Shown one piece after another: positions 16,716 to 64,000 of a stretch of 64,000 nucleotides of DNA. The stretch is from positions 5,230,101 through 5,294,100 of the forward strand of contig NC_092677.1 of assembly GCF_964355755.1 (NCBI RefSeq). The letters run 5' to 3'. The stretch is from Antedon mediterranea. Lineage: Eukaryota; Animalia; Echinodermata. The position numbers and the translations under genes are program-made. Below the pieces are notes generated by a model. It was not told where the DNA came from. It searched no databases and worked only from the letters and a program-made list of their open reading frames with translations. Within the stretch, counting starts at the first letter, position 1. Every line of letters begins with the position of its first letter.

Positions 16716-19700
16716 CTATATGCCTATCTGTTTACAATAATGCGATTCTGCAACTTTTCCTTTATTGGACGTACTACTAACACCATAATGAGGCTCTTCG
16801 TAAAAGCCTACACTATTTGACGAAATCAGTCCTTGGTACTGGTGGTTTTGGGGTTCCATTTTAATTTCTTCTCTTGTTTCCTGACGAAACAATAATAATA
16901 TGTATCATTGTTTATGAGCAAACTTTCTTTTTTCGATCACTTGATGAAATATTAAATTTAGGTATTCATACCTTAATTAGCCACTAGACTTCGGTTACCG
17001 GGCCTAAATAATTACCTCTCTATTGTGCATAGCTTTATTGTTATTACCAAAAACATCAATATTATTAGTCAAGTAAGTACAGTGCTGAAACCTCAACACA
17101 TTGAATACGGAATGAATTAGAAATGATTCTCATTATCATGTCTTATCATCGCTTCACTAAACAGCTATATTCCTTTGGTACTGAACATTTTGGCATTCAA
17201 TTTATAAGGCTGTATTAAAAGGAGTTAAAGCTAAAATTGGGCGTTGATGAATGTCTTTTGGTAACATGGACTTTCAATTATTTTGTTTAAAATATTTACC
17301 TCTACTTTTGCAATGCATTTTAATGTATTAAACGTAGGCTTGACATATCCGTCGTCACCATCAGAGCTTCCTGAAACTTGCAGATCTTGGTACTGATGAT
17401 CTTGACGTTCGATTTTGTTTACTTCTCTCTGTACAATAATTTATGATTGACAGTTTTTATTATTATAATTTGATTTATCCGGTACTCTCTAGTAAATACC
17501 GAAACCATTTTAAACAAGCTAACGAAACCGTTCAATATAGGCCTACACATCTACTATAGCAACTGTTTATGTTATTCCATGTTGCAACTATGGCGAATTA
17601 GGTTAAACTTTTCCATGCTACAATTATTTGAATTAGTTTACAATTGTATAACAGAATATTTATTATTTTGAGTTGTATTATTAATCCGTGGCCATATAAT
17701 GTTGTTGAGAAAGTGTACCTGTATTTTTGGCCTGTATCTTGCTTCATTTGAAGCCAGATAACCCTCTTTGTAATCTCCAGCTTTTGAAGGAAATTGCAAT
17801 CCTTGATGGGGAATGTGAAATGTAAAATTGTTTTCTTTTATTCTTCTTACCTTAAAAAACAATAACGGAAAACATATCATATATGAAACGTTTATTTGTA
17901 CTTCGAATATTTCATAATTATATCCAATAAAGTCATATACGAATTAAAAGTACTTACATATATATAACGGGCTATTATAAACGTCAAGACGGAGCCGAGA
18001 ATAAGTGATAATGTTATCACTGTACCTTTAGGATATGACGGACCTATAGAAATATCAGTGTAAATAATATTGAGATAGGCCTATACATCTTTTTTTAGAA
18101 AAATCTACAAAGAAAATGTTTGCTTGACTGCTGGATAAATGGGTGCACTGTCGTGTTGTATTCATTTGTGTAAACCCGCATTGCTATTGTTATTGCAAGT
18201 GGGAGATCATGTGCTTTTCAACATTAATTTGTATTCCTTTTTTTCACCTCAGTTTTAGGTCTCTGTATAATATACAGGGTTTTAATATATAGCGATTGCA
18301 TAATATTGAAATTAATAATGTTGCCTTATGAGAAACATAAGTCATCAAAATATATTATTATAATTATTGGGCGTAACATTTTTATACAGCATGTTCGATA
18401 GGTTATCTAAGCTATCTACAAAGGTTTAACAATAACAGAATGTTTTCATGGTCAGAAAATAACAATTATTATTAAAATAGGGTATACTGAAAAAAGACTA
18501 GGAGCTGGCCTACCTGCGTTACAGTTCTGCAGCGGGACTGTATTGTTGCACTTTTCATTCTCAGCATAACACGTAAGACTTGACTGGCATATCTTGTTGT
18601 TAGTCTCTAAAGTAACTGAATTGTAACCTTCTTCAATCACTTCTTCATCTTGCAATATCAATACTGATGATAGTTTGGGATAACCCTCTGCAGTACAGGT
18701 TGCAAAACCATGTTTAGGTTTGAATGTTACAATGATGTCTATATAAGAAAGTGCAATAGAAGCTACATTATTTACAGTAATTTTGGAAGACTTTATGCAT
18801 TTTGGGATTGAAAACAAGTTCAGTATGTTTTTGTATTTATTACAAGACTGCTTATTTAAACCACAAAACACCAATCAATATATATCAATATTTTCCTCGA
18901 CGATTTTGAAAGAAATTCATTGAATCCTCATCAAATGGAAACACATGTTTAAAAATGAAATTACTAAAAGTTGCAAAATTTTAAATACGATATATATTCA
19001 GTTGTCTTCCTTCACTTGTTTTAGCATCCTCTCCTTTAAACTGATCACTTTCTGCTTTACATGTATATCTCCCACCATCTTCTTCAGTAGCTGATTTAAT
19101 CTTAAGAACTGACTCTGTACTGTTATTTGCAATCTTATATCTAGAAGGGTTGATATCTATTTTGCGCCCATCTTTATACCATGTTATGTAAGGAATAGGG
19201 TCTCCGCCAGGTTTGCTGCATGTAAATGTTACCGTTTCACCTTTGAATGTAGTGCTTGCTGAAGCTCCGAGAAGAGGTTGATCCAAGTCTGGGAAAACAT
19301 AAGAGAATAAAATATCAAAATAGTGCAGTATATCAAAGCTAATAGACAATGACTTGGGGGCACCTCTATACTAAAGGAGAGAAATACACAAAATAGAAAA
19401 TAATTACTGTATAGGCCTATTAATGTCAGATCATGTGTACTATATTATATTATTTTTTATATATTATTTTAATGTTAATAGCGTACTTTCCATAATTTTT
19501 ACAAATTCGTATTTCATTATTGAAATCGACAACAAACTTTAAATGTAAATATATAAAAATAATAACTCTACCATGGTTGTACACAAGCAGTACTTGAATG
19601 GTCCCTTTAGAATCCCATTAAACAATGTTTTACATAGACAGGGAAATATTGTTAATTTCTAAATGAACGTGTAGGTGGTAGCTACAACAAGTCTATTGTA

Positions 19701-20716
19701 AATTCACTCAATTGAGTCACGGTGATATTGGATAATGGTCATTCATAACTTTTGTTTATGAAGTACTGTATACTCTAACGAAACGTTTTAGATTGTCAGG
19801 ACAATCGCCAAAACAAACAATGGATAGAATTCATCGCGGGAATGGACTGTGAAGAACAGGCCAAGCAAGATAAAAAACAGATGGAAGGATGATGAGCATT
19901 TTCTGGAATGTTCTGGATGAGAGCTACTGCACAGGACAGGGAGGAGTTCCAATGCTGGAAATGTATTGAAATGATGATGTCAAAAGTCTAGGTTACTTAC
20001 AATAAACAGTAAGAGTAGATGGATCTGATAATTTAACAGCTCCATTTGCCTGTTGTATCTGACATTGATAACATCTTTGAGAATCATTTCTCAATGGCTT
20101 TACCATTACCAGGTCAGCTCTCCCATGCGTTATCTTCAACCTGAAACGGCCGTTTTCTTTCTTTTTATAATTCACAAAACCAATTTCAATAACCACTCCA
20201 TCTTCATTTAGTTCATTCCATTGTACTGCATTAGGTGTTGTAGAAGTAAATTGTGAATAATCACAAGTTATCACCACTTCAGCATCACCTTCTTTAGCTA
20301 TCTGGTGAGATGATGAAGTTTCTGTAAATTAAACGTGCTTGGGTTTAACTCTTTTTTTTAAAATAATAACTTTATACTTGAAAGGCAAACGTGAAACCTT
20401 TACTTATTATCACCCGATGCCAATCCGCAGCAGTTTTCAGATACAAAACGTAATGACGTCATGAATCTGCATCCTAAAAACCACTAAAAACATTATAGGA
20501 CTCGACGCTTGGCAGCACATTGATAAATATGTGCCTTGATACAATACATCCATACATTTTAGTACATTAATAAAATTAAACAAAAGTAGGCCCTATACAC
20601 TGTAGGCAAAAGCTGACAGAATGTATTTACTCAGATAATGAATTTTAAATAAAGTTGCGCTTACCGACAAGACAATGTACAACAAATAGTAGGCCTAGTA
20701 CCAAGTGTAAAGCCAT
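16716..20716 (-). CDS. Gene A: type-I membrane Ig receptor (signal-V-I-short Ig-TM-Tyr-motif tail). Exons 20716-20665, 20321-20001, 19288-18989, 18738-18514, 18043-17958, 17850-17719, 17428-17300, 16880-16716
   Basis: Signal MALHLVLGLLFVVHCLV. TM exon GTVITLSLILGSVLTFIIARYIY. Three phase-0 cytoplasmic exons (44, 43, 54 aa) with YQDL, YVKP, YQGL and YEEP. All splice phases are consistent, and the last exon is paralogous to the last exon of gene B. Confidence 0.8.
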
Positions 20717-22028
20717 TAATCTGAAAGACTTAAAGGGTATTAAGTCAATTATTATCTTTATCTAGCTACTGTGATACTTTCTGTAGTCATTATGGAATAA
20801 ATACTTTCATAGCAACAATAACATTAGTTGTACGGTGTTTGTTTCGTTTTCGATTGAATTTGGTATCAAATAATAATAATTGTCGTTTTGGTATAGTGTG
20901 ATATTAGGCCTATCTAAAAGAAATTGAAATGAGAAAATCACATTTGATCATTTTTATTTTTATACTGAGAATTAATTAATACAGCTAAACCATGAATTTA
21001 TCAATGGGTGAATGAATAATATTAGAGATACAGTACACTAGATTACTATTTATTTTGGCATTTGTGGCGCAGCATATACGTCCCTGGGCATTGTGACGTA
21101 ATGTTAAAGAGGCCCCTAGGAGGAGTTGAGCTGCTCTCTTCGCACATGGATTAAAGAATAGAAGGATATGCATCGACGGTGACATCAAACGATTTTACAA
21201 CGCGCTTTCCTATACTAAAGCACTGCTGCCAATCAAACAAACACGCTCATTGAACTCCGTGTCTCTAACCGCGGCCCTCTCTAAAACGCTGCGAATCAAC
21301 TGTTACATTTTTTTAGACCAAAACGTAACCATGTAGAAATCGTATGCGCAGTCTGAATGTTCTATTGACATGTCTACGTCGATGATTAATTGACAACAAA
21401 AATATATTGCTGAATAATTCTGTTTTAGTTTAATCACAATCGGACTATGAAAAGTTCACTTTCTTACGACTGGTAATTTTAAGTAGTTGGTAATATTAAT
21501 AAAATATGCAATTTTTATATTTGAATTATCATTATTTGCCTGCCATCTTCTGTCATTAAAAATTGCGTTAATCTATAGAATATTAAATTATGCACTTGAC
21601 CATGTATGTTGTTAGCGTGGCCGGTTTTCACCCATACAACAATCGTGTTTTTAATATATGGCTAAGCAGTGGTTTCTTCATAAATCTCCTTAATTATCGA
21701 TGTGATTATATTTAAATTGTAGTGCCTGGTGATTGGCTAGTGGTTATGTCATCCACATCACATCCAATCACCGGGTCTAATTGAATGAAAACAGCGATCC
21801 CTGATCCGGGATTGGCTGGCTATGTATAGTTGCGATTCGTTACCTAGCGGTCGTTTTGAAAAGTACACGCAGGGCAAACTAATCACGAACAAACGAAGTA
21901 CCTATTATTATTCACACAAGAAGTAAGACAACGGTGAGTATATAGATCATGATTACACGTATGGAACGCCTCCTCTGCCTTCAGTTCACAATGGTCATGC
22001 AGTACACACCAATCGTCATGCAGTACAC

Positions 22029-23188
22029 TATGGAACGCCTCCTCTGCCTTCAGTTCACATTTATCATGCAGTACACACCAATCGTCATGCAGTACACACC
22101 AATCGTCATGCAGTACACACCAATGGTCATGCAGTACACACCAATCGTCATGCAGTACACACCAATCGTCATGCAGTACACACCAAACATCATGCAGTAC
22201 ACACCAATCGTCATGCAGTACACACCAATCGTCATGCAGTACACACCAATCGTCATGCAGTACACACCAATGGTCATGCAGTACACACCAATTGTCATGC
22301 AGTACACACCAATCGTCGTTCACATTTATCATGCAGTACACACCAATCGTCATGCAGTACACACCAATCGTCATGCAGTACACACCAATCATCATGCAGT
22401 ACACACCAATTGTCATGCAGTACACACCAATCGTCATGCAGTACACACCAATCGTCATGCAGTCAAATATTGCGTAATTTATACCGCCACCTATCGACAA
22501 AATCGAATATCACGTGAGGTTTATTAGACGGCTGTAAAACTAAGACTATTTAAACTTCTTTTATGGAATTCAATAATTGCAATGGCCTCCTAGCCGCGCC
22601 TGTGTCTCGCATAATAAATTATTGTATATATAAAAAACAGAGCATTCACAGAGATGTGTAGCGGTTAAAATAAGTACAGTATGTCAAACATAAAAGAAAT
22701 CTTAGAGTCGATGGCCTAGTTTTACAGCCGTCTAATAAAGGTCACGTGATATTCGATTTTGTCGATAGGTGGCGGTATAAATTAGGCAATATTTCACTGC
22801 ATGACGATTGGTGTGTACTGCATGACAATTGATGTGTACTGCATGACCATTGGTGTGTACTGCATGATGTTTGGTGTGTACTGCATGACGATTGGTGTGT
22901 ACTGCATGATGTTTGGTGTGTACTGCATGACGATTGATGTGTACTGCATGACCATTGGTGTGTACTGCATGACGATTGGTGTGTACTGCATGACGATTGG
23001 TGTGTACTGCATGACCATTGGTGTGTACTGCATGATAAATGTGAACGACGATTGGTGTGTACTGCATGACCATTGGTGTGTACTGCATGACCATTGGTGT
23101 GTACTGCATGATCATTGGTGTGTACTGCATGACGACTGGTGTGTACTGCATGACCATTGTGAACTGAAGGCAGAGGAGGCGTTCCATA
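22029..23188. mobile_element. Foldback-type non-autonomous element, copy 1 (about 0.5-kb minisatellite-containing TIRs), preceded by a 69-bp arm fragment at 21960-22028
   Basis: Ends TATGGAACGCCTCCTCTGCCTTCAGTTCAC and its reverse complement, with a unique core of about 175 bp. No TSD found for this copy. Confidence 0.75.
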
Positions 23189-23210
23189 AAGGCCTACCTA
23201 GGCAGTATCA

Positions 23211-24307
23211 TATGGAACGCCTCCTCTGCCTTCAGTTCACAATGGTCATGCAGTACACACCAATCGTCATGCAGTACACACCAATGGTCATGCAGTACAC
23301 ACCAATGGTCATGCAGTACACACCAATCGTCGTTCACATTTATCATGCAGTACACACCAATGGTCATGCAGTACACACCAATGGTCATGCAGTACACACC
23401 AATAATCATGCAGTACACACCAAACATCATGCAGTACACACCAATCGTCATGCAGTACACACCAAACATCATGCAGTACACACCAATGGTCATGCAGTAC
23501 ACACCAATTGTCATGCAGTACACACCAATCGTCATGCAGTACACACCAATCGTCATGCAGTGAAATATTGCGTAATTTATACCGCCACCTATCGACAAAA
23601 TCGAATATCACGTGACGTTTATTAGACGGCTGTAAAACTAGGCCATCGTCTCTAAGATTTCTTTTATGTTTGACATACTGTACTTATTTTAACCGCTACA
23701 CATCTCTGTGAATGCTCTGTTTTTTATATATACAATAATTTATTATGCGAGACACAGGCGCGGCTAGGAGGTCATTGCAATTATTGAATTCCATAAAAGA
23801 AGTTTAAATAGTCTTAGTTTTACAGCCGTCTAATAAACCTCACGTGATATTCGATTTTGTCGATAGGTGGCGGTATAAATTACGCAATATTTGACTGCAT
23901 GACGATTGGTGTGTACTGCATGACGATTGGTGTGTACTGCATGACAATTGGTGTGTACTGCATAATGTTTGGTGTGTACTGCATGACGATTGGTGTGTAC
24001 TGCATGACGATTGGTGTGTACTGCATGATAAATGTGAACGACGATTGGTGTGTACTGCATGACAATTGGTGTGTACTGCATGACCATTGGTGTGTACTGC
24101 ATGACGATTGGTGTGTACTGCATGACGATTGGTGTGTACTGCATGATGTTTGGTGTGTACTGCATGACGATTGGTGTGTACTGCATGACGATTGGTGTGT
24201 ACTGCATGACCATTGGTGTGTACTGCATGACGATTGGTGTGTACTGCATGACGATTGGTGTGTACTGCATAATAAATGTGAACTGAAGGCAGAGGAGGCG
24301 TTCCATA
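23211..24307. mobile_element. Foldback-type non-autonomous element, copy 2 (inverted relative to copy 1), IS3EU-like
   Basis: Same TIRs. Core is the reverse complement of the copy 1 core. 6-bp TSD GTATCA (23205-23210 and 24308-24313). TAT..ATA termini with a 6-bp TSD match my recollection of the IS3EU superfamily. Confidence 0.7.
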
Positions 24308-24662
24308 GTATCAATGTCGGCAAATCATATGGTTTACTAGTAAGCCTAGAAGGCATAGGCCTAGTATCCTTGCTGATTTTGTAATTTTACATGTATGTAG
24401 GCTGAGACAATAAATAAATAGTTATTGTCTCAGATGTAGGGCTACTACAGGTCATAAAATGCTACTTTAATGTCATAAAAACATTAGCGTAGATCAATCG
24501 CGGCAGAAACATATACTAATTACAATTATAGCATCTACAATTCTAAGCCAATAACAATATAGTATTGTTTTTATTTGGTATATTGATGAAGTAGGCCTAC
24601 ACTAGGGTCTTCACAATAACATACAATGTAATTTAACAACTGTTTTCAATAAACATTATACT

Positions 24663-24845
24663 CAGTGGCGTGAGGCACAGGCCTGAAGCCACTTGTTTGT
24701 TTAGGAAACCTAAGTGGCCCTCCAAGTTTCAAAGATCGAGGCCTCGGACGTTTTTAGCATTTTCCACATATTTTATGCCTGTTCCTCTGGGCCCCAAGCT
24801 TCGGTTTAGCCAGTGAGCGCACATAGCCGTTACGCCGCGCCACTG
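24663..24845. mobile_element. hAT-type MITE
   Basis: CAGTGGCG...CGCCACTG termini with a perfect 8-bp TSD ATTATACT (24655-24662 and 24846-24853). Confidence 0.8.
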
Positions 24846-25120
24846 ATTATACTGTTCAAATATGTATGAATACATACAGTGCAACAAAGAACGCGCGAAA
24901 GAAGCGTAGTCAACAAGGTTAAATGTCGTTGCACATGTGCAGTAAACAATATATTAGGCACGCGACCGTTTCGTTGTTACCATGCAGTTAATTAAACTGT
25001 AACATTTTGGGCGGTCCGCGGTCTGTCGGCGAGAGTCAAGGAACCCTTGATCTCACGTCGATGCATATCCTTCTATTCTTTAATCCATGCTTCGCACCAC
25101 CGCCAGAGTCGAGGCAAAGA

Positions 25121-27730
25121 TTGTTTACTTGTTTACTTGTTTACTTGTTTACTTGTTTCCGGAGCTCAGCAATGCTGGTCCGGAGTCGAGGCTAGGCTAT
25201 GCCTATAAGCCCCTCTTGATAATTACATCAACTCTTGAATATGGCGCAAATTTAAGAGGGTGGTTGGACCATGCCCGTTCAAGACCGGACTTAAATTGAT
25301 TGGTTGATCTTGAAGCTACTACATCCTCCGATAACGAATTCCATAATATAATAGCTTTTCGACCAAATGAGTCCCTCATCCAATTTGTGCGTGAGAACTT
25401 AAATTTTAATTTAAAAGAATGACCACGTGTTCTAACATCTTCATCACGCTCAAAAAAAGAATCAGCAGAAATACTATCCACTCCATGTAAAATTTTCAAA
25501 ATCTGTATCAAATGAGCTCTTTGCCTTCTGTATGCGAGAGTAGGTAGGTTGAGAATTTTCAGCCTTTCTGAATAAGGTAAATGACGAATGGAAAAAATAA
25601 GCTTGGTGGCACGTTCTTGGACTTTTTCCAATAGGTCTTCCTCCTTACAATGTAGCGAGTTAAAAACAACGTTGCAGTATTCCAAGGTCGGACGAATAAT
25701 AGCTTTATATAAACGAAGAAACCCATCCATATTTAAAAACTTGAAAGCTCGATATACCATGCCCAACTTCCGATTTGCTCTCATTGCTACATCTGCCACA
25801 TGTACATTAAAAACAAGTTTAGAGTCAATAGTAACACCGAGGTCTTTTTCATGATCAACTTCATTCAATAAGAAACCACGCATGGCATACAGATGTTTGT
25901 TGTTTTTCTTCCCAAAGTGCATTACTTTGCACTTACCCTCGTTAAAAGGTAATTGCCATTTGTCAGACCAGTCACATGCTTTCTCTAAATCTTCTTGTAG
26001 AACTTGAGCATCATTCACAGTGTTAACTACTCTATACAATTTAGTATCATCTGCAAACATGCGTACAGAGGAGGAAATAACAGAAGGTAAATCATTTATA
26101 AACATAATGAAAAGAACAGGTCCAACGACGCTTCCACTACGAACATCAGCCCAATCTGAAACACATCCATTGACACTAACCCGTTGTTGTCTATCGTTAA
26201 GAAATACTTGAAACCAGTTTAGAAGTTTACCTCTAATACCCAATGCACTCATTTTCAGAAGGAGTCTATGATGAGGCACACTATCGAAAGCCTTCTTGTA
26301 GTCAAGGTAGATACAATCAAAACAATCCTGATTATCAAAATAAGAAAACCAGTTTTCAAGAACATCAAGTAATTGTAAAGCACAGGAACGACCTTGCCGG
26401 AAACCAAATTGCTCATAACAAATAAGTGAGTGATGTTCAAGAAAGTCCAATAATTCCTTCCTGATAATTCTCTCCATAATTTTACCAACTACCGAAGTTA
26501 AACTCACAGGTCTATAGTTGCTTGGGTCAGACTTCACTCCTTTTTTAAAAATCGGTACCACTGTAGCCCGTTTCCAACTATTAGGGACGGCTCCTTCTTG
26601 AAACAATTTCGTAAAAATAATATGGAGGGGATAGCAAATGATATCCTTTAGTTCGACTAAGATGCGTGGGTGAATACCATCAGGTCCAGCTGTTTTAGTA
26701 ATATTCAACGTTGATAAAATATTTAAGATTTCGTCACAAGGAAAGTCAACTTGAGATAAAAAATCCTCTGAAATGTCATCAATAGCCGGTACATTCGAAA
26801 AATTTTCATCGACAAATACACTACTAAAAAACGTGTTTAGCAACTCAGCCTTATCCTTGTCATCAGACACATGCCTTCCATTACTATCAGTTAAGTTGGG
26901 TATACCAGACTTTATATTGATCTGAGAACTGAGATACCTCCAAAAAGACTTTTCATTAGATTTGATCTCAATTGCTATTTTATTTTCGAAGTCAGATTTA
27001 CTACATCGAATCAGATCTACTGTTTGATTTCTTACTTGGACAAACTTCGACCATTTTGCTGACACACATACTTTTTGTTTTCTCTTGGCCTTTACATACT
27101 GTTTCCAACATTTATTCTTTTTGGCAATCTGCTTTTCAATTTTTTTGTTCATCCAAAGAGGTTTTCTTCCGTGGCAAACCTTCCTCATCGGGATACACTC
27201 ATCAATATTCTTCGCAAGAATATGCTCGAATTCGTCCCACGATTGAATACCTGATTTGTCATTGAAAACCACATCCCAATCTACCAAACCAATTTTCTCG
27301 CGCAGCAAATCATAGTTACCATGCCTGTAACTTCGAATATTTGGTTCAATTCTGTCATCTCTTACAAGATCCAATGAAAATTGTAACACCATATGGTCGC
27401 TTTTACCCAGTGGTGGAGACTGCATAATGCCATTTATAGTATTCTCTTTGTCTGTAAAAACCAGATCCAAAACATTGGGTGTTTCGCCTTCTCTGTATCT
27501 AGAGGTTCCATAACGTGTTGAATTAAAAATAGATCGTTGATGGTGTCAAAGAAACTTCTGCTGGAATCTCCATCTTCCGAAGACACACAATTTAATTCCC
27601 AGTTAATACTTTTATAGTTAAAATCGCCGACAACGATTAAATCAGAAAAAGATGATTTATATACTTCACGGAACAATGAGTTCAGCTTGATATTATTATC
27701 CATACTACAAGTCGGGCTACGGTAAACGCC
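25121..27730 (-). mobile_element. 5'-truncated CR1 LINE with ORF2 (partial APE endonuclease + RT), frameshifted near 27470-27500
   Basis: GVYRSP, VVGDFN, LGKSDH, PSNYRPVSLTS, YLDYKKAFDSVPH, MFADDTK, LEKVQERATK. (GTAAACAA)n 3' tail at 25121-25158. Confidence 0.9.
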
Positions 27731-28448
27731 GCGCCGCGCGCCACAAATGCCAAAAATAAATAGTAATCTAGTGTACTGTATCTCTAATATTATTCATTCA
27801 CCATTCTTTGGTGGTCGAGGTGGTGTGTACGTACTTTAGTCCTTTTATCTTCAAATTAGTTTAGTGACAATATAATGATTGGAATAAATGGGAGTAAGCA
27901 TAAAGTAAGCATTATTTTAATTTTATATATTATTGAAATAAAAAATCGCCAAAATAATATTATTCTCGCACAATTAAGCTAGGCCTAGGCGCGGCCTAGA
28001 TAGTTAGTGATAGGGAGGCTAGTGAAGTAGGTGCAAGAAGTGTACTGTAGAGTAGTAGAGAGGGAGGAGGCCGGCTACTAACTTTACTAGCTAGGCCTAC
28101 TACTGCTAGGCATAGGCCTAGGTTGTTGGGTAAGCCTACTAGAAGCCTACACTAGACTAGTAGTAGTAGGCCTAGCTGATCGTTTATAGTAGTACTTTAG
28201 TAGTAGGAGAAAGCCTGAGGAGGCAGAAAAGTCTAAAGTTCAGATTCACAGTGAATTAACAACGTATAATGTTAACTATATAGTCTATAGATAGGTTAGA
28301 TAGGGTAGATATTAACTGACGGATAATAATTCAAAAGTATCATTCGTCGTGAGGTGGTTTCCCGAATGATCGTAAAATCAAAACGGTACTGCATGACCAA
28401 CTAGCGTTCTTGTCACCAACTAGTCATCCATTCATAGAAGTACTGATG

Positions 28449-29899
28449 TAGTAGCCTATCTGTACGGTGACCATAGAATGTGACCCGAGACATGACTTAT
28501 GTACTCCTATCGATCACCAAGATGTCTATAAAATTCAAATATGCTTAGGTCAATAGTTCAAAGGTCAGAAGGTTTCTAAAGGAATTGAGTATTTTTCTTT
28601 CATTAGAGTGAATAGAAAGTTGGGCATTCTGAATAATTTGGGACAATTTTGAACTCTCTACGGCCAGTCGTTGATGAGATATTGAGATAATCCAAATTTA
28701 TGGTCAAAGGTCAAAACAGGCATTTCCGGTCATTTTTTTAAAAACTTCTCCATTACAGTGAATATAAATATTGGTCTTCTGAGTATTTTGACACCAAAAT
28801 TGTTTACTTATGTTATGCGCGATTTGAACGATTTGCGCAATTTGAAATTGCGCAAAAAAATCCTTGCGCAATTTGAAATTGCGCAAAGAATTCTTGCGCA
28901 ATTTAAAATTGCGCAAGGATTTTTTTGCGCAATTTCAAATTGCGCAATCAACTTGCGAAATTTCAAATTGCGCAAGAAAATCTTTGCGCAACTTTAAATT
29001 GCGCTGCACAATTTGTAAATTGCGCAAGATAGTTCTTGCGCAATATGACACCTTTGCGCAATTTGAAAACGAACTGTAAATTTTCAAATTGCGCAACAAA
29101 ATTCTACCAGACAATCGGTATTATAATAATTTATTGGAAACTAAATAACTCAAAATAAAACATAATAAATGCGAAGATAACATGTGTATAATAAATACAT
29201 AACATTTATTATTACAATTAAATAATATTATCACTGTAACTTGAAATAAATCAAAATAAATGTAAAAATTAAGTTTTTAATATTAGTTTAAGCTAGGCCA
29301 TGTAACCTAGTCGGTATCAGTAGTCCAGACCCTAGCTAGGCTAGAGTAGTATAGCCGGCCGCCCGCGCCGCGCCCGCCTGGTGGAACACCACCGCTTCGT
29401 TTTCCTTCGTCGGTTCTTCGACGGTATGCTAACTTATAACAATATTTGCACTAATAAAATAAGGAAATGCGATATTTATCTTTAATTTTGAATCATTCTT
29501 AGAAATTACTATATAAATATGGGTGTGCATGATTTCACAATCTGTCGAAAAACCTTGCGCAGTTTGCAGATTACTTGCGCAATTTAATACGTTGCTTGCG
29601 CAATTTGAAACACATGTTTCAATTCAAATTGCGCAAGGATTTTTTTTGCGCAATTTCAAATTGCGCAAATTGTTCAAATCGCGCATAACACTTACACCTA
29701 CTGGTTGTCAAAATATGGTAAATAATGTTAAGATGGCTGCCATTTTGAAAAATGGCCCAATCAGGTTGAAGCACAACGGGGAAACCATACTTTTAGTATG
29801 TTGTTCCAGACAACATTGGGGACCTATCCTGAAAAATTGAGCTTTAGCATATTTATTTCTACCTTTGGCCCTTTTTTTGTCTAATACTCCTGGACTACT
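28449..29899. mobile_element. Probable non-autonomous DNA element interrupted by the Ginger-like insert
   Basis: TAGTAG..CTACTA candidate ends. AAGATGGCTGCC motif like the nearby Academ subterminal repeats. No TSD confirmed, and the boundaries are uncertain. Confidence 0.3.
28811..29690. mobile_element. Ginger-like non-autonomous DNA transposon with TTGCGCAA-rich TIRs
   Basis: TGTTATGCGCGATTTGAAC...GTTCAAATCGCGCATAACA termini (TGT..ACA) with a 4-bp TSD CTTA (28807-28810 and 29691-29694). Confidence 0.7.
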
Positions 29900-29921
29900 A
29901 AGTATCGTAGTTTTAAATTAT

Positions 29922-30145: not shown

Positions 30146-30390
30146 TGTAGAGTTGTGTGAATTATTTATAAACGTGAGGTATAAGATAACAAAGACGTAT
30201 GCTAACTCAGTGTTAACTAGGTGCCGTGCCCGTGATGCAATAAAATTACTATGGATAACCAAATTATAATTATTAAAAACTTAACATTTTGCATAAGATA
30301 AAGTCATATGATTCATGGTTTTGTAGTGGAATTGCATGAAAATTACTGATAAAATGACAACAACTCAGCTTCACCATCGCGTTGCACATT

Positions 30391-33300: not shown

Positions 33301-34103
33301 AATGAATCAGCTGTTCCAGATGAAGCAACGTCAGATTCAGTGAGAGCCGTTGTCCAAACTGACTCATCTAATAAATCGCCAACAGTGTTCCATAGCTCCT
33401 TCTCAATGTGCAGTCCGCCCATCATAACTACGTAGACTTTCTCACCATAGAGATCTGGCCATTTCCATTTTTAAATTTGACCGTCATCTTGGAAATGAGT
33501 AACCTGAGCAAAATGGCTTGACCAGTATCTGTTTCAGTAACCTCAGATACCTCTGAATTGACACCTTATTTGTTCATTTATGATTTTTACAGCCTTATAT
33601 AATATTTCCTTTTTTTGGCAGCCATTTTGAAATTTGGCCGCCATCTTGGAATTGGGTGACCTGAGCAAAATGGCTTGACCAGCATCTATTACAGTGACCT
33701 CAGAAACCCCTGAATTGACACCTCATTTGTTAATTTCTGATTTTTACAGTCTGATATATGACATTTGATTTTTTTGGCGGCCATTTTAAAATTTGACCGC
33801 CATCTTGGAAATTGGTGGTCTGAGGAACATGACATGACCAGCTTCTGTATCAGTGACCCCCAGAAACCCTGACATTGACACCCCATTTGTTGATTTATGA
33901 GTCTTACAGCCAGATATATGGCATTTCCTTTTTTCTGGCTGCCATCTTAGATTTTGGCCGCCATCTTGGAAAATTGGACCCGATCAAGTGGGTTCCACGG
34001 AAAAAATCAATAGATAGGTCGAAAGGAAACTCCATGCCAAATTTGGTACTTTTGTCCGGCCGGTAACGTTAATCCTGAAAATTGTTGCTAAGCCACCTGA
34101 CTA
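30391..34103 (-). mobile_element. Academ DNA transposon (internally deleted) with long TIRs
   Basis: TIR TAGTCAGGTGGCTTAGCAA...ACGTTACCGGCCGGACAAAAGTACCAAA at both ends, about 0.5 kb of inverted subterminal repeats, and a 3-bp TSD ATT (30388-30390 and 34104-34106). Confidence 0.85.
31010..33470 (-). pseudogene. Frameshifted Academ transposase with XPG-like nuclease domain and C-terminal Cys cluster
   Basis: Fragments in successive frames: GGLHIE, DHVNYSRWLPVHIRDM, DQVHEQEN, GNPF, VDVVWDEY..SLKEGTREKRG, EESDTRIVVH, TVDTDV, HSLSGCDTTSAFRGNGKK, VKCGCK. Confidence 0.8.
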
Positions 34104-34619
34104 ATTGCACTACATACTGTATGGATAAATTGTGCAAATGTTAAAATACGATCCATAAATTGCAGTCCACCTATCTCATAAATTATGTGCCCTGACGACT
34201 GAGAATTAGACTCTTCCTGAGTAGGCAGCCTATTTATTAAATTAATAATGTTAAGGGCGGGCCAGGAGAAGTACAAGTTTAAATGCTTTTTTTTTTAATT
34301 AGCAAATTATGGTGCAGGATTTTAGTAAAAATAACACCAGGTAGTGGTAGGCCTATTTTAATAGTTATAATGGTACAAACACCCAACAACATATACTTAA
34401 GTGCGTGGCAACAAGCAAGCAATGCCTAGGTTAGGTAAGCGTTGGCCTGGGTAAGCGTAGTTAAGGGTTGGGTAGCAAGTCACCCCATACAAAGTCGCCG
34501 ATTTTGCGATGGACCGACTTGTATAATAGACCAACTTTGCAATTTAAATACCATCTGTCTAGCACATGTTATGTTTTCTTAGTGTACCATAATTATCTAG
34601 GCCTCTAAATTTACTAGGA

Positions 34620-52324: not shown

Positions 52325-55300
52325 TTAGTCGTATAACTGTTCACAATAATGTGGTTCTGCAACCTTTTCTTTCTGTGACGTAATACAATCACGAGGCTCT
52401 TCATAAATGACCTCTTGACTTGAAGAAATAGGACTTTCAGGAGTTTGACATTCGATTTCAATCTCTTTTCTTTCCTAAAAAAACAAACAATAGCAATAAT
52501 AATTGATTGTTTCTATTGAATATATTTTAACAAAATATTATTGTTAATGATGTGTTAAAATGTTATCAATGTATGTGCCATGTCGTAGAAAAGATGGTTT
52601 ATTAGTCATTAACAAATTCATGGTACTTAAAAACAAGTTTCGATTGCTTATGATATAAATAAATATACTGGGTATATTTATTAATGTCAACACAATCTTT
52701 CCTACACTGAACGTTATTTTTTGTTAAGCTTAATTCCCTCTTGCATGCAACGTGTTGTTTTTTCCCGCTGTTCACTCCGTCAAATCGAAAAAAACTTCGG
52801 TGTAAGAGTACAACCATAGAGGAATTTATACAATAGAATATTGGAAAATTATGATTTCAGTCTCCCATTGATTCTGTTTTGTTGGAATACTTCAACAGCG
52901 TCAAACCACAGAGTTGTCAGAATTAATTGTAAATCTGTTCAGTATTAATTAATGTATTTAGGTTTTTTTACCTGTGTTCTTGTTCTGAATTGCCCTCTGT
53001 TGATTTTGCTGTAAACGTCAACATTGGATTGAGTTTTCACTTGGCCTTGACGATTTTGATATTTTGAATGGACTTCTCTTAATCGTCTTTGCTAAAGAAA
53101 CAATTTCAATAAAAAGTATTAGTTTGTTCGTTGGGTGCTTAAAGGAATGTTTATTCATCACCTTGACTTAAAACTGTAAACAAAAAGTACTTACATCAAT
53201 ACAACGTGTAAGAACAGAACCAAGAATGAATGCAATGATGATAGCCACAGTTAGTAGGCCTACCGTACCCATTTGAAACGAATCATCTAAAACTGTAGAA
53301 AAGAATTAACCGTTAGTTAAGTTTGGTTGTGAAATTATTGCAAATATTTATTTTCAATACTGGTCTAAAGTGGTGAATGATTAACAAGTTGAAATGTAAT
53401 CATTCAGACACTAACACATATTGGTAAATACAGTATGGTGACATACCTTTCAAATTTTCTGTAGGCCCATCTGTAGACATATCTGCTTTGGGCCTACAGT
53501 TCTCAAGTGATGTGGAGGCATTAAATTTTTCATTCTCTGCATAACATGTAAGATTTGATGAACATATCTCATCATTGATTTCTATAGTTGCTGTATTTTC
53601 TCCTTTCTTAACCACTTCTCCATCTTGTAATATCAATACTGATGATGGCTTGGGATGGCCCTCTGCTGTACAGGTTGCAAAACAATCTTCATGATTGAAT
53701 GTTGCGATCATATCTAATGAGGGAAGATAAAGCTTAAAGCTTAAGAAAATGAATATTCATTTGGAATCGATATAGGCCTAACAGCAAGAAAATTAAGCTT
53801 GTTATTACAGATTCAGTTCATCACACCTTTATTTAGTTATGAATATATCTGGGCCCTTACAGAAGAGGACCCACCACAGGACTCTAAATGAAAGAAAAAG
53901 AAACGAAAGAAAGAAAACTTTTAATAAACAAAGCAAATTCAAAAAGTTATTTTTAATTATGGGACCCTTTCTAAAGTACAGTACAATATATGGTAAATGA
54001 TGAACAAGAAAACTATTAATAAACAAAGCAAATTCTAAAAGTAAATGAAACATTCAGTAGGGTGGGGAGTAGGGGCAGAAAAAATAATAAGGATATTCAA
54101 AATTTAAGTATTCAGAATATAGATATAGAAAGTTTATTTTTACAAGAAAACAAAACAAAGGAAAACCAAATAGTGATATTTTTTCTAATTCAACTTATCG
54201 AAACTTCAGATTACTACAGTATATTACATAAAAACTATATTTTTGATCGGCTCATATCTTTAATAGTAGGCTATCATTAGATACAAACAAATGTACCACA
54301 ACATTGTCTACGTACAAAATATTTCAAACTGTTTTCCGGCACTAATTTTAGCATCAAGTCCCTTAAAAGGATCACTTTCTGCTTTACATGTGTATATACC
54401 ACTGTCTTCCATAGTGGCTGCTTCAATCTTAAGGGCATTGCCGTTGGTATTTATCTTCTGTCCATCTTTATACCAAGTAATGTAAGGAATAGGATCACCA
54501 TCAGGTTTACTACAAGTAAATGTGACTGTTTCACCTTCATAGACAGTGCTTGCTGAGGCATTAAGACGTGGTTGATCCATGTCTGAGAAAAACAATACAA
54601 AAAAACAACGAAAATAATGGTATACAAATAAAACAATTTACAAATTAAAGAATGAAAGACATTTATAGAGTAGACATAGTATTAATGAGGCATTAAGACG
54701 TGGCTGATCCAAGTCTGAGAAAAAGTATAAAACAAATTAGACAGCAGACAAATAAAGATGTAGTCAACACAAATTACAACAAAAAGAAGTGTATATAGTA
54801 TTATGCCTATTATTGATACTCAAGAAAATGTAGGCCTAACTCTAATTCCGGAGTTATACTATTGGCGTGACGTGGGAACATTTACAATTATAGGCCTACT
54901 ATTTAGTAAACAAATATTAAGGATGTCGGTTTATGATGTGTTTATTTTTCAGGCTACATCATGATTATCTGTTATACTCACAATATACAGTTAGCATAGA
55001 TGGACTTAATAATTTAACCAATCCATCTGCGGTTTGTATCTGGCATCTAAATATTCTCTGAGAATCGTTTCTTAAAGGATGTAAGATCACCAGGCTAGCT
55101 TCACCAGGAGCAGTGTGTAATCGGAAACGTCCATTTTCCATCTTTTTATCATTCACAATTCCTGGGTTGATGACTACTTCATCTTCATTTAGTTCATCCC
55201 ATTGTAGTGAAGTAGGAGTAGAAGTAAATTGTGAATAATCACAAGTTATCACCACTTCTGCATCGCCTTCTTTAGCTGTCTGGTTAAAGGTCGTTTGACC

Positions 55301-55942: not shown

Positions 55943-57590
55943 TTTTCATTGCCCAGCATAAAGTTATATATCTCTTACAAGATTCTTCTTCGATATCTGT
56001 AATCAGTCTATTATGAGTTTTGTTTTTGTCGCTGTCGGCCAGTTTCATTTAGTTATCTTTATTATCATAATAGTCATCTTCACAATCAATGAAAAAATTA
56101 TATAATATTTGTTCAATCTTTCCTTCGTCTTCTTTTATATTTATAAGTAGTTATGGTTAAGCTACTTACCTTTGTCTTCTCTGTCAAGAATTTAACACTG
56201 TCAATTATTTGTATTCATTATTATTTTAATAAAATTGTACTTTTTTGTTTCATTTTCGATCGCATTCAAGGACGTAATCAACCATGACATTGATATTTAA
56301 ACTGATGATTGGTTGATTTTTGATATAATACGCCTTTATTTATAGATTAATCAATTACATGTTCTGTTAATAATACCACCGGTATTACATGCCGCTGGTC
56401 ACTACAGCGATCTTGTGTCAACTCATGTATTCAATTTAGGCTTACATTTGTCATCACTCTCGGCTTATTCTTTATTAAACTCAATTAATTATATTATTGC
56501 TATAGTAGGTTATAGATATAGATTACGTCGGCATAAACTGCAGGCCTAATTCCCGTTAAATGTTATAATACAAAATATCATCTTCTAGAAAATAGTGTAC
56601 ATCTTCATAGCGAACACCGTTAAAGATGTATTGTCTCCTTTTTTTTGTTGACTATGCCATTTTAATTTTAATGTTCCATAATACTTATTCACTTTGACCA
56701 AAAATTTGATCGGAAAAAAAAATTATTTACCTGCAGAGCTTGTTATTTAAAGCAAGAAAGTAGTGAATTTGGCTACCAGACAATAATAGGTTTTGAGTTG
56801 AATTTAACCGCGTTATGTCGTCTTTATATAATATAAGTGAAAACATTATTTGTTTCGTTTTTTTCATGCGGGTGACTAATTTATCAAAACTACAAAATGG
56901 CCTATTCAAAATTTGATTTTATTAATCTTAATTTGTCATGTTTTTTGGGGGACTATACATCTTATTATTACGGTGTATCCATTATTAATGATAAGAACAA
57001 TCTACACTGTATATGCTAACAAATATATAAAAAACAAGAGTCACGTAATTACCCTTTTTGGCACTTCAGGCGTTCCATAACATTTTATTTTTGCAGTTCA
57101 GAGATGTTTAAAAAAAGTGGGCGTATCCGATTTCCCACATGAAGCTCCAGTTTATTTTAGCAGAAGGAATTGAACATGTTTGGAAGAGGAGGTAACTATA
57201 GCCCCATTCTACTTAATTTTAAGGAGATTAGATTTTGCCTTTACAACCAGCAGCTAACGAAATGGGGGCCAGTAGTGCTTTTTTGGCCTAGTTTTTAGTG
57301 GGTTTTATTTAGTTAGAGAGTTAGGCTACTGTAGCTAAGGCTAAGCGTCTACCACCCACGCTAATTTTGTCGGGGGAAAACCCAGAAACAGTGATTTTCA
57401 TTTGTGTGGGGTTTATTATTGATTTGTCCAAAATTATTTTGTTTTGCAAATTGTGTTTAGCCAGACAGGGATTTCCCATAATTTTATTCTCAACTTGAAA
57501 AAATTAAATATCGGGAGGTTTAAAAAACTATAGAGGGCGCTAAAATAATATAGCAAACCATAGAGGGTGCTATGGAAAACCTAAAAATAT

Positions 57591-57805
57591 TTGTCGTATT
57601 CGAGTGAACCGTTGAGTAGTTTTTCCATTGAGTACTTATTTAACGGAGATTTTGAGCGTTGAGATTGTTCTTAACGAAAAAGCTTTCGTTGTCAACGTTT
57701 TCTATTCCAATGACTTTCTGTTGAGCACAAATTTACAATTCGAATACTAAAAGTACTCAACGAATCTTTACGTTAACAACGAAAGTTCCCAATCGAATAC
57801 GACAA
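57591..57805. mobile_element. Small MITE in the B/L3 intergenic region
   Basis: 13-bp TIR TTGTCGTATTCGA / TCGAATACGACAA with internal GTTGAGTAC-type inverted motifs. Confidence 0.5.
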
Positions 57806-59018: not shown

Positions 59019-62000
59019 ATGCATTTACTAGTAGGTGTAGTCATATTCCTGGTTTTTACTAATGGTAAGTACCTTGTATTTCATTTCAATACAGTTTTAT
59101 ACTTCATGCTTATTATGCGATTGAAAGTATCATTTTCTGTGATAGTTTCTAAGCAATATTCAAAATCCTGAAGGATGAAAGCCACACAAAAAGACAAATA
59201 AAAAAGCATAAATATATTTTCTTTACTTTAGACCTAATAATATATTCTTTCATTTCTAGAGGCCCATTGCCAGTTGGTGACAACATCTGACCAGGAAGCC
59301 AATGAAGGTGATGCTGAAGTGGGGATAACTTGTGATTATTCACAATTTACTTCAACTGCACCTTATGCAATACAATGGGATGAACTAAATGATGGTGGAG
59401 TAATTATCAACCCAGGAATTGTGAATACTAATAAGGTGCAAAGTGAACGTTTCAGGTTAGAAACTTCTCCTGGTAAAGCTAATCTGGTGATGTCACAACC
59501 GCTGAGAAAAGATTCTCAAAGAATATTTCAATGTCAGATAAAAACACTAAGTGGAGATATTCAGTTATCAAATCCATCTATTCTAACTGTATATTGTGAG
59601 TAAAGTAGATTTAATATTCTGTTGTTATACCACTATTTCTGATGTAATACAATATTGCACCTCTGTAGAAGTTAACCTTTTTAGTAGATAGAGTCCTGGA
59701 GCATCAGTTTGGTAGTAGGGGTGTGAGAGACTGAGGTGAACACATTTTAGACAATAGACCTTTAGCTGCACCTAGAAATTTCATTTAAACTTGGAATTTA
59801 TTGACTTTATTTATTATTATTTTTCTGTTCTATCAATGTTTTATCTGAAAAATATAGAACACTAACAATGAAAGTGCTAAAAGTATAATGAATAAAAATA
59901 TCCAATCTGCAGACAGTACTATTTTGATCTTAGATCTTGTCAGTGCAGCTCAGGTTTCACAATTATTATATAGCTTAAGCTAGTTATGTTGGACATGGTA
60001 CACTGATTATGAACACAAAGAGTGCAGAAACTCAAGGAGCGAGCGTGCAATGAAAAATTCTATTAAATAATAAATTATTCTAACAAAAATGCATGGTGTG
60101 GATTTGAAGAGTGCTAGTCTAGAAAACAACATGCTTTTGTATAAAGCAGAATATAGAGAAGTGTAATATCTTATCTGCATAAAGAATAAATATAAATAAA
60201 AAAAATTATTTAACAACATTAATGATCTTTACTCTAGAAAATGTATTCTTAAAAAATACATTTATATTTTCTTTCTTTTGATAATCAGACTTAAATCAAC
60301 CACTTCTTGATGCCTCAGCAAGTACTGTCTATGAAGGTCAATCAGTGACCTTTACCTGTAGTAAACCTGATGGTGATCCTATTCCTGACATTATTTGGTA
60401 TAGAGATGGACAGACAGTCAACACCGACAACCCTTCTAGATATGAGATTGCAAATAGCAGTACAGAGTTAGTTCTTAAAATTAGATCAGCTACTGATGAA
60501 GATGGTGGGAGATATACATGTAAAGCAGAAAGTGATCAGTTTAAAGGAGATGATGCTAAGACAAGTGTTGAAAAACGGTTGATTGTAATTGGATATTGTA
60601 TGTACACATTACTTTTAACATTACTATTAATAATTGTCTTGTTAAAAGTATGATTTATGTGATTTAAATTTGATTTTAGTTTTAGTTTAAATCTAGAGAT
60701 AGACAGCATTAACATGAGCTAAATTTGTCTTTTTAGATATTTCCATTAATTTTACATCTGATGGTAGTTTTGCAACCTGTTCAGCAGATGGCTATCCCAG
60801 ACCATTATCAGTATTGATATTACAAGATGGAGAAGTGGTTAAGAAAAGAGAAAATACAGCAACTATAGAAATTAATGATGAGATATGTCAATCAAGTCTT
60901 ACCTGTGATGCAGAAAATGGAAAACTTAATCAAACAGCAGCATTAGAGAACTGTGGTCCAGGTCATACAGTATTCAGTAAATACAATTATTACAAAGCTA
61001 TACATACAAGTTTTAAAACAATATTTTAAGAAATTTAAAAATGTTGTTATAAAATAGGTCTTCCTGGTTGATAGTATATACCATTCACCAGAAAGAATAA
61101 TACATTGCTTGAATGTTAGACCTACAGATAAAATTAATTTACATTGACATCTGAGCTGATCTTGTACCCCTTTTTCAGATATCACTGTTGAGTTTACATC
61201 TGAAGATGGTTTTGCAACATGTACAGCGGAGGGCCATCCCAAGCCATCATCAGTATTGATATTAAAAGATGGAGAAGTGGTTGAGAAAGGAGAAAATACA
61301 GCAACTATAAAAATAGATGACGAGATATGTCAATCAAGTCTTACATGTTATGCAGAGAATGGAAACCTTAATGACACAGCCACACTGGAGAACTGTAGGC
61401 CCAAAGCAGGCAGGCCTACAGATGGGCCTACAGGCAATTTGAAAGGTATGTCACCATACTGTATTTACCAAGTTAGGTTAGTGACTGAGCAATACATGTT
61501 GGTGGTATTTAGTTTAATGTAAAATGCAACCAACCATTGTTAAAAGATGATTTAATCATCGTAGTGATGTCTCAAAAGAGAAAGAAAGTTAAGAGAAAAA
61601 ACAAAATGATTAAACAAATGTGTCAATATGAGTTAACAAATTAGAAAATAGTATAAAACAATGTTAATGTGTAGAAGAAAATGAATGTTAAAAGAAAATT
61701 TTTTTTGATTTTATTTATTACGTGCAATGTATTTCAATATTTTAAAAGATGATAAAATAAAAGTGGGATATACCAAGTAGATCACCAAAATACATTGCTC
61801 TTTAAACACTCCTTTTTGTTAAAACACAATTTGAAACAATGCAACTGTCAGACATTAATAACATGATGATTAACATCGCATATTTGTATTGCTTTATTTC
61901 ATGTTCATCAAGACAACAACTACTAAAGTAACTACCATATCACAACATATTCTGCCTTTTCCATCTTCCCCATGAAACATCCAACCTTCCTCATTAGCAG

Positions 62001-64000
62001 TTAACACAATATCGCAAAACAGAACACCAATAAGACTGGAAATTGGCACAGCCATTCTTCTTAACCAGAAATAGAAAACATTTTTATAAAATTGTGGTCA
62101 GTTGAAGAATTCACTAATTGCATTTTTAAAAATCACAGTAAATACTGCTGCAGGATATTTAACTGTAATGTATATTCATTTAAAACATTGATAGAGGTTT
62201 TTCAACGATAAGATGTATTTCCATTGAAATAACTTTGTTTTGATAATTGTTTATAATTGATAATAAATTTGTTGTTAACAGTTATTTCAGAAGATTCAGG
62301 ATCATCATATGCCATAATTCTGATTATTTTGTTTGTTGGTTTATTGACATGGTTTCTTCTTCTTGTTTGTAAGTATCATGTACTGTATTACTTAATGTCA
62401 CTTTGGAATATCATAAGCCCTTTTTATTTCAGTGAATTTTAATAACAGTATTCACAAATTTGAAACCCTCAACTATGTTAGGGTTACATGGAGTACTATT
62501 AGAATGTTTTTATTTAGAATTTTTTATTTAGAATTTTTTATTTTTGGGATTTTGATTATTAATTGTAGTTTGATGAGTAATGAAACGAAATAAATACTGC
62601 ATGGACATAGATTACATAATATTTCATAATGATATTGATACAAAGATTGCTTTTACAGTATATTGGTAGACCAATAGGATTTATTTTAATTTAAAAAAAT
62701 TTATTTTGTTTTAGATTTTATTTTTTACAAGAACATTGAGTGGAGCAATCAAGATAATGATATAGTGAGAGTTGAAGGTGGTAATCCAGTTGTGATGAGT
62801 TTTAAATACCGTCCAAGTATTGCAAGGTTCAAGACTTTTGAAATAAAGAAAGACAACAAGGTGCTTGGTTCAAATCAAAAGCAATTCATTAGTTGTAAAA
62901 CAGTCTGTCAGTTTGTCTGTTATTGCTGTCTTTACTTTTTTGGATTTTTTTGTATTGAATACTGCATAAATAAAGGTAAGTTACATATTTTAATTTTGTT
63001 AGTAGGTCATTGTTTCTCAAGTCATCATTTCTGACAGTTCTAAAAGTTAGTAGTCTGATGTTGTTATTATTGATATATAAAAGTTTTTAAATACAGCACT
63101 TTTTTAGTTTATTCTGCTGGGAGAATGATACATTGTTTGTATATCATTTCTGTTCATTATACCTGTACATTAGATGAATATTTTCTTATTTTTATTTAAT
63201 AGTTAAATACAACAATAAAGATAAAAAGAAACATGGAAGGAGGTGAGTTGAGTTTGTAACATTGGTGGGATTTATTTTGATTATTATATTTTAGCTAATT
63301 ACAAATTTTATTGAAAGGTTATGGTTAATAAAAGAGAATGTCCTGGTGATGCATAGGTCTTCTTTGTAGTTTAATATTATTATCTTGTATTGTGTTCCTT
63401 ATAGCAGTGGCAATAGAGGTGGTGAAGAGTATCAGATGATGGTCAATGAAAGACAAGGTCCTGATGGTGCAGAGTTACCTGCTGTTGTAATACAATTACC
63501 TAACAAGGATACAACAACTGACGAAACTGCTGTACAACAACCAACAGCAGCCACTGAATCTGAACAAAGTTCAGAGGTATTGTGAAAATACTAAATCCTT
63601 CATTCCTTGAATTGAAAGTACAAAGATACAAAAAGAAAAAAGACATGTTTGTTTAATAAAGTATTGTGTGTTTTGTGGTGTTTCAAAAAGGAAATTTTGA
63701 CTCCTCCAATTTGATTCCTCTTTGGTACTTAAATTCTGTTTTTTACAATAAAATGTTATCCTTTTTTTTCTAATTAGAGTAAAACCTATTCTTTGGGACA
63801 CCTCTATTCAAGGGCCACCCCAATTAAGGGGATACTTATCTGTGAAATGAATGAGACGCAATTTATTATATTGTAGCACTATGGCCAACCTTATTGTGAG
63901 CCAAATGTGACCCTTATGGGTTTTACTATATTAACAAAATATAATTGTTTTTTTCAAAGACAAATCCTGATGACGAAGATACTGAACTTTTAGCACAACA
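59019..64000 (+). CDS. Gene L3, 5' portion (continues beyond the window). Exons 59019-59064, 59260-59595, 60289-60597, 60737-60961, 61179-61445, 62291-62368, 62715-62975, 63203-63242, 63405-63576, 63960->64000
   Basis: Signal MHLLVGVVIFLVFTNEAHC, then V, I and two short Ig exons. TM YAIILIILFVGLLTWFLLLVYFIFY. The 261-nt post-TM exon is nearly identical to that of L2. The last exon matches L1 483-537 and L2 38567-38621. Confidence 0.85.

Follow-up and report, generated by a model that had tools for sequence, protein, structure and literature searches.

Head-to-head immunoglobulin-superfamily genes with a common ectodomain and two kinds of tail in the feather star Antedon mediterranea

Does the cluster of receptor-like immunoglobulin (Ig) genes carried by a 64,000-nt stretch of DNA (the window) from the crinoid Antedon mediterranea form a paired-receptor system? 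As defined in the available part of PMC5701461, paired receptors combine homologous ectodomains with overlapping expression and opposite signalling. An earlier note on this DNA had proposed such a system, in which genes of a short (S) and a long (L) type share one ectodomain, differ in their tails and alternate in head-to-head pairs. We observed the gene structures, their order, the common ectodomain, the tail motifs and the loss of sialidase catalytic positions. From sequence comparison, we put the chance that the cluster works as a paired-receptor-like innate recognition system at roughly even (about 0.5).

Gene models were built from exon coordinates, and their reading frames are open end to end. 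Orientation was read for the five genes of the window, which follow each other as L1(+), A(-), L2(+), B(-), L3(+):

483..14412, + strand: L1, 3' part, 16 exons, 938 aa, with loop exons, the second half of a split Ig domain, five Ig exons and pseudo-sialidase exons
20716-16716, - strand: gene A, S-type, 8 exons, 469 aa, with leader, V, I, short Ig, transmembrane (TM) and three tail exons
20665..20716, - strand: A leader exon, absent from the public model P0017, top-scoring candidate in a leader scan
20001..20321, - strand: A V exon, V-set match at E 3e-4, below the curated cut-off
34620-48867, + strand: gene L2, L-type, 23 exons, 1302 aa, with leader, V, I, short Ig, TM, split Ig with Cys-rich insert, four Ig and pseudo-sialidase
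37425..37493, + strand: L2 TM exon
37671..37931, + strand: first post-TM exon of L2, holding a Cys-rich hydrophobic segment
45625..48867, + strand: L2 pseudo-sialidase exons
55622-52325, - strand: gene B, S-type, 7 exons, 425 aa, with leader, V, I, short Ig, TM and two tail exons
59019..64000, + strand: gene L3, L-type, 5' part, 10 exons, 587 aa to the window end, with leader, V, I, two short Ig, TM, Cys-rich exon and loop exons

These coordinate-based models match the orientation claimed earlier, with A/L2 and B/L3 divergent and L1/A and L2/B convergent. Window exons gave 100% matches to public proteins named Antedon mediterranea. The L1 model is an exact suffix of P0005 (XP_071958844), and its 5' part including the ectodomain lies before position 1 and is visible only in that protein. 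Similarly, P0017 (XP_071958847) is an exact suffix of the A model. The C-terminal half of L2 is annotated separately as P0001 (XP_071958848), and L3, which continues past the window end, has its ectodomain annotated as P0014 (XP_071958850). B was not found in the public protein collection searched, where the best match reached 61%. In the same leader scan, the leaders of B and L3 also ranked first in their gaps.

Some candidates were discarded or left ambiguous. A reading of A as a 5'-broken pseudogene was rejected on finding the leader exon at 20716-20665. A candidate L2 exon at 38713-38798 was dropped because it breaks the frame, and an over-long version of the exon at 45625 was replaced (corrected to 45670). 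The L2 leader (34620-34712, +) is ambiguous, as the stronger donor at 34712 has no in-frame ATG among the candidates scanned. An open Ig exon of L2 at 42770-43096 is skipped by P0001. Just upstream of the real I exon of B, positions 54641-54736 (-) hold a partial duplicate of its acceptor and first codons.

Self-comparison of the window returned the V exon four times, the I exon four times and the short-Ig exon five times on alternating strands, with two of the short-Ig exons in L3. In A, B, L2 and L3 all three exons are phase 1-1 and 69–91% identical in DNA, while amino-acid identity among the four genes is 59–68% for V, 65–84% for I and 54–74% for short Ig. The claim of shared exons with phase-1 introns therefore stands for these four genes, and the counterparts of L1 lie outside the window. 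Pfam detected Ig families in the I and tail exons and a weak V-set in the V exon of A. AlphaFold models of eight sequences predict V, I and short Ig as three β-strand domains followed by a TM helix, while the split Ig and the Cys-rich segment were left unresolved.

For five independent genes, the chance that strand matches type is 1/16 by simple arithmetic; strict alternation of three L and two S genes has a chance of 1/10, giving 1/160 jointly. Independence does not hold for these genes, and a single inversion with subsequent duplication is enough to account for the alternation without selection. The layout itself is real and beyond chance, and the observation of an alternating L/S array with one ectodomain and two tails is confirmed.

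The exon models also bear out the contrast between tyrosine-motif tails in the S type and Ig/pseudo-sialidase tails in the L type. The A tail carries YQDL, YVKP, YQGL and YEEP, and the B tail YSKI and YEEP. After the TM, the L tail runs through half an Ig-like domain, the Cys-rich hydrophobic segment, a low-complexity loop, the other half-Ig, four or five Ig domains and a sialidase-like domain. The second half of the split Ig gives Ig hits at E 0.005–0.08, and the two halves may belong to one split domain. This contrast would be an annotation artefact if each L 'gene' were two neighbours, a tail-less receptor and a cytosolic Ig/pseudo-sialidase protein. Public models do split L2 and L3, with P0014 stopping after the TM and P0001 starting in the tail, and no contig across the TM-to-tail junction was seen among the bulk-run contigs compared with the window. 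Nevertheless, in both L2 and L3 the frames and phases connect with no intervening stop, the full-length L-type models P0002, P0005, P0006 and P0023 span V to sialidase, and the isoform-annotated P0167/P0024 run from the short Ig through the TM into the tail, which makes two separate genes very improbable.

The sialidase-like part is clear by homology and has lost most of what catalysis needs. Residues 1106–1364 of P0005 match Pfam BNR_2 at E 2e-19, and the nearest outside relatives (10 of 147 matches examined) are proteins of Anneissia japonica and hemichordates named sialidase-2/3/4-like. Like NEU2/3/4-type sialidases, the L tail gives a full BNR_2 match; unlike them, L2 keeps only the RIP-motif arginine of seven catalytic positions when compared with relatives and NEU2, and its domain comes after a receptor and an Ig array in one fused protein. 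With the roles usually assigned to these positions, L2 does not carry the residues that GH33 sialidases need for activity, namely the acid-base Asp, the arginine triad and the catalytic Tyr/Glu pair. The second crinoid, A. japonica, has dead sialidases as well: P0026 and P0028 also miss the second arginine, the glutamate and the tyrosine, and one of them has an Ig domain in front. No A. japonica relative of the ectodomain was among the family-search matches.

On which side of the membrane does this tail lie? The same Ig tail occurs in P0023, which is without the Cys-rich segment, and in P0009, whose TM is directly followed by a basic run. The B-strand cysteine is lost in two of the four intact tail Ig domains of L2 and in two of five in L1, and sequons number 19 in 1314 ectodomain residues vs 5 in 1381 post-TM residues. 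Because of these four features we infer that the L tail is probably cytoplasmic. By analogy, the two chains might then work as sensor and helper, the cytosolic dead sialidase and Ig array of the L chain serving as an integrated decoy or bait and the S chain giving the tyrosine signal, the two being copied and relocated together as one head-to-head unit. Plants have head-to-head sensor/helper pairs of nucleotide-binding leucine-rich repeat receptors (NLRs) with integrated domains, and an animal counterpart in the immunoglobulin superfamily (IgSF) would follow if this speculative idea, which we consider improbable, were true.

The S tails belong to a wider family. Searches returned 7 of 68, 9 of 85 and 15 of 3272 candidates; every one came from A. 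mediterranea, and a 28.6-Mb contig carries all except one. The S protein P0021 and the L tail P0025 share a second contig of 39 Mb. At least six S-type tails (A, B, P0016, P0019, P0022, P0021) align as one group. YEEP, which we take to be an Nck/Crk-type site, occurs in five of the six. The pattern YxxL-x9-YxxL, with the spacing of an immunoreceptor tyrosine-based activation motif (ITAM), occurs in two, P0019 and P0022, both outside the window. On the L side, one paralogue has two motifs matching the immunoreceptor tyrosine-based inhibition motif (ITIM) pattern in isoforms P0012/P0015 that are absent from isoform P0013, and the window contains nothing corresponding to the ITIM exon of P0012. 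ITIM-pattern matches in L1–L3 themselves lie in folded domains or at the TM, and none is in the loop.

Are head-to-head partners also regulated together, as the proposal of a bidirectional promoter had implied? Bidirectional promoters have divergent start sites within about 1 kb. The start codons are 13,904 bases apart in A/L2 and 3,397 bases apart in B/L3. Of the A/L2 gap, about 11.4 kb consists of three insertions, leaving about 2.5 kb. The three insertions, followed by an element found upstream of each S gene, are:

21007..27802: insertion bounded by 65-bp terminal inverted repeats; it contains an inverted satellite array and the reverse transcriptase of a LINE (long interspersed nuclear element)
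28811..29690: short inverted satellite block
30387..34107: insertion with terminal inverted repeats of about 500 bp and broken (frameshifted) open reading frames (ORFs), without a Pfam match
20841..20853, - strand: 13-base element upstream of A, the same element as upstream of B
56247..56259, - strand: 13-base element upstream of B, about 80 bases 5' of position 56170, where the strongest splice donor of the gap lies

The element at 30387-34107 is probably a decayed DNA transposon. Within the first insertion, positions 21960-24307 form a minisatellite array of alternating inverted blocks, with arms up to 928 bases at 97%.

Given the 11.4 kb of insertions, a bidirectional A/L2 promoter is very unlikely. 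The B/L3 gap has no CpG island in its CpG profile. Splice acceptors precede the leader exons of both B and L3, which places untranslated first exons within this gap. When the A/L2 gap is compared with the B/L3 gap, the best matches reach E 0.049, one of them being the S-proximal stretch, the one interpretable stretch in common: 33 bases at 82%, just upstream of each S gene, with a motif like an interferon-stimulated response element (ISRE). The 13-base element, which we take to resemble an interferon regulatory factor (IRF)/ISRE site, has two matches, both upstream of S genes, where 0.29 are expected, the pattern being derived from these two sites; a looser version occurs 13 times vs 5.6 expected. 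A shared stretch beside each S gene fits separate S promoters better than one shared promoter. With one gap consisting mostly of transposons and nothing conserved beyond the S-proximal stretch, the bidirectional promoter of the earlier note lacks support, and the partners are probably driven by separate promoters.

These distances bear on whether S and L chains might form obligate heterodimeric co-receptors whose two chains, like Botryllus FF/FcoR, are expressed together and passed on as pairs, S signalling and L acting as scaffold or decoy. Each of the two S genes of the window (2/2) has an L gene as its head-to-head neighbour, the second contig carries both an S protein and an L tail, and the available part of PMC12582321 provides a precedent in Botryllus. 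Hints of a joint B+L3 duplication in contig depth and paralogues, given below, point the same way, as do exon-bounded contigs of B type and L type that both come from run X9. Such pairing sits poorly with 11.4 kb of insertions between A and L2, with gaps conserved only at the S-proximal stretch and with trees that show no partner concordance. We consider it unlikely.

The expression data are assembled contigs of bulk runs, which record presence, not co-expression. A 659-base contig of run X9 (depth 8.28) covers the last exon of B from its first base. Its equal depth and its end at the exon edge argue that it includes the preceding B exon, and its remaining 321 bases leave no room for the 497-base intron, so it would be spliced; we read it as a spliced B-type transcript. 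Run X5, which has the same organism code as X9, keeps the B intron. From a paralogue, run X8 has an I-to-short-Ig exon joint with exactly the six bases expected after splicing. The same run has a contig over the last exon of A and its 3' flank but also an intronic contig, a mix from which expression of A does not follow.

Partners might also be tied by exchange of sequence. In four-gene alignments (A, L2, B, L3) we sorted informative sites by the grouping that they support. Among 25 such sites in the V exon, 14 group head-to-head partners, 6 tail type and 5 another pairing; the I exon (16 sites) gives 3, 12 and 1, and the short-Ig exon 5/9/4 or 4/8/5 in the same order. The V and I patterns differ (Fisher p 0.006), and the approximately unbiased (AU) test rejects non-partner V trees at 0.04. 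Moreover, one tract is common to B and L3:

B 53404..53691 (- strand) and L3 61201-61488: shared tract, 88.5%, covering the short-Ig exon, its 3' extension and 43 intron bases

Its intron part scores 61 vs a shuffled maximum of 29, the sole clear match in 24 comparisons; in the same set, an A–B upstream match is marginal (34 vs 32). The 3' extension of the short exon occurs in P0016 and P0023 as well. V identities are scattered: A is 68% identical to both L2 and B, B is 69% identical to P0009 and 64% to L3, and L3 is 100% identical to P0008. These comparisons suggest patchy exchange between genes, partly between partners, without tight homogenisation.

The idea that the array grew by duplication of a two-gene cassette fared unevenly. 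In its favour, L3 has a public paralogue 96–97% identical (P0008, P0024), and in run X1, which may be the source sample, three listed contigs over B and the B/L3 gap have depths of 23.8–28, five over the L2 tail 13.6–14.2, and heterozygous pairs near A 7.7–8, although contig depth is not copy number. There is thus a hint of a recent joint duplication of B and L3. Synonymous distances argue otherwise for the cluster as a whole: A and B differ by 0.63–0.96 in V, I and short Ig and by 0.64 in the last exon, L2 and L3 by 0.12–0.27 in I, short Ig and the first tail exon and by 0.50 in V. The A–B distances exceed those of L2–L3 in most exons, a pattern not expected from one simultaneous cassette duplication, and as judged from these distances A/L2 and B/L3 are not a simple recent copy of each other. 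The convergent gaps have in common only pieces of the L last exon and short pieces of the S 3' flank. Between L2 and B, positions 51194-51256 hold a 64-base piece 83% like the last exon of L, possibly a relic of another L gene.

The unequal divergence just described is one of several results that weigh against the paired-receptor reading. Where paired receptors have an activating member with an ITAM or a charged TM residue, the tails of A and B match neither the ITAM nor the ITIM pattern and their TM cores hold no charged residue. In three of the six S tails (P0016, P0019, P0022) the tyrosines also fit the ITIM pattern, so that the direction of signalling is ambiguous on sequence grounds. The family has at least four tail types, beyond the two in the window: in P0009 and P0020 the TM leads directly into Ig repeats, and P0011 has a short tail without tyrosine. 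AlphaFold gives the post-TM region (330–565) a predicted local distance difference test (pLDDT) score <50, leaving it unresolved. For the V quartet the result is borderline, as the Kishino–Hasegawa (KH) test does not reject (p 0.053); the partner tree is not rejected by the I exon (AU 0.25). Partner V domains are 64–66% identical, no more than several non-partners, and partners are not sisters in a 14-sequence V tree (midpoint-rooted, mostly weak support). The S-tailed P0019 and P0022 have L-like ectodomains and are nested among L sequences in the tree. By fold, the ectodomain is as close to adhesion proteins (nectin-like, CEACAM, IgLON) as to immune receptors. An Atlas search with P0017 returned generic Ig receptors, and P0003 had no PDB sequence hit. 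For residues 960–1285 of P0009, which lies outside the window and has the same ectodomain, the best Atlas hits were death-effector proteins (0.85), a lead only.

Much of this would suit an ordinary birth-and-death cluster of adhesion-type IgSF genes, its alternation stemming from one inversion and tandem duplication without functional pairing. Adhesion-like folds, V domains whose closest relatives are not their partners, the range of tail types and the unequal A–B and L2–L3 divergence all favour it, and so does the public accession order, which, if positional, puts S beside S and L beside L. Nevertheless, such a cluster leaves aside the ITAM-like and ITIM motifs of paralogues, the partner-specific V sites with the B/L3 tract, and what we take to be an ISRE-like element upstream of both S genes. 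We hold this alternative to be rather unlikely, if well worth considering.

Under the paired-receptor reading, an old inverted duplication would have brought an S gene and an L gene into head-to-head order, and the array would then have grown by birth-and-death duplication, at least once of a head-to-head unit (B+L3). Patchy exchange between genes, partners included, would reshuffle the ectodomain exons. The S tails may recruit SH2 proteins, the short type being predicted to signal by tyrosine phosphorylation and the L type to be its damping or scaffolding counterpart. The L tail would be cytoplasmic and held at the membrane by the Cys-rich segment, with optional ITIMs in one paralogue.

How does the cluster compare with known systems? 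As in paired receptors, the ectodomains of separate genes are homologous and their TM and cytoplasmic regions differ. The earlier interpretation is thus supported in part: one ectodomain with different tails in one cluster holds up, and we see signs of exchange between partners and of one recent B+L3 duplication; the missing ITAM, ITIM and charged TM residue in A and B and the more than two tail types do not accord with it. The closest known system, absent from the comparators of the earlier note, is that of the Botryllus schlosseri IgSF genes of the fester family and the fester co-receptors (FF/FcoR). The available parts of PMC12582321 and PMC12065747 describe these genes as encoded head to head, expressed together and changing in copy number pair by pair. 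The likeness lies in the head-to-head partners. By the same sources, FF and FcoR form separate families, built of Ig and sushi domains, and their co-expression is demonstrated, whereas the Antedon partners are one V-I-short-Ig family known as pairs from sequence, the long one with an Ig/pseudo-sialidase tail. Pfam scans of 22 exons and four proteins gave no sushi match, so the architecture and fester homology of FF/FcoR are absent there.

SIGLEC11/SIGLEC16, head to head about 9 kb apart with repeated conversion of the V-set exon, likewise combine similar ectodomains with different tails, as far as the available part of PMC5701461 describes them. Their converted regions are highly similar, while the Antedon partner V domains give a partial signal of exchange and are not homogenised; opposite functions are demonstrated for them, Siglec-16 acting via an ITAM adaptor, in contrast to A and B with their uncharged TM cores. 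The Hydractinia Alr cluster resembles ours as a large invertebrate cluster of single-pass V/I-set proteins with one domain per exon and tails more divergent than ectodomains, with ITAMs in 14 proteins and ITIMs in 2 according to the available part of PMC9546547. It differs in its Fn3-like extracellular spacer (ECS) and demonstrated allorecognition role, and that part of the paper describes no two-gene cassette and no enzyme-derived tail. Judged from sequence features, the crinoid cluster resembles the Botryllus, Siglec and Alr systems in layout and motifs. Since tests of opposite signalling and matched ectodomains failed or stayed open, we do not class it as a member of any of them.

Our literature search, judged by titles and abstract starts, found no paper on such a cluster in crinoids and no match for a dead sialidase tail behind an Ig array. 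New here are the crinoid case and the partner with the dead-sialidase tail; head-to-head IgSF pairs were already known. Descriptions of paired Ig receptors that signal through tyrosines exist for vertebrates, Botryllus and Hydractinia; with an echinoderm case, head-to-head IgSF pairs would have arisen independently once more. For self/non-self recognition in feather stars, the cluster is a candidate that can be tested.

The remainder of the window holds repeats. LINE-type reverse transcriptase ORFs (Pfam RVT_1) lie at 7514-9652 (-), 12431-13393 (+) and 25203-27545 (-), two of them in L1 introns. The same repeat occurs at 36413-36742 in an L2 intron and, inverted, at 49624-49947 after L2, with very high depth in all runs. 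G+C content across the window is 26–42% in 2-kb bins, with zero N.

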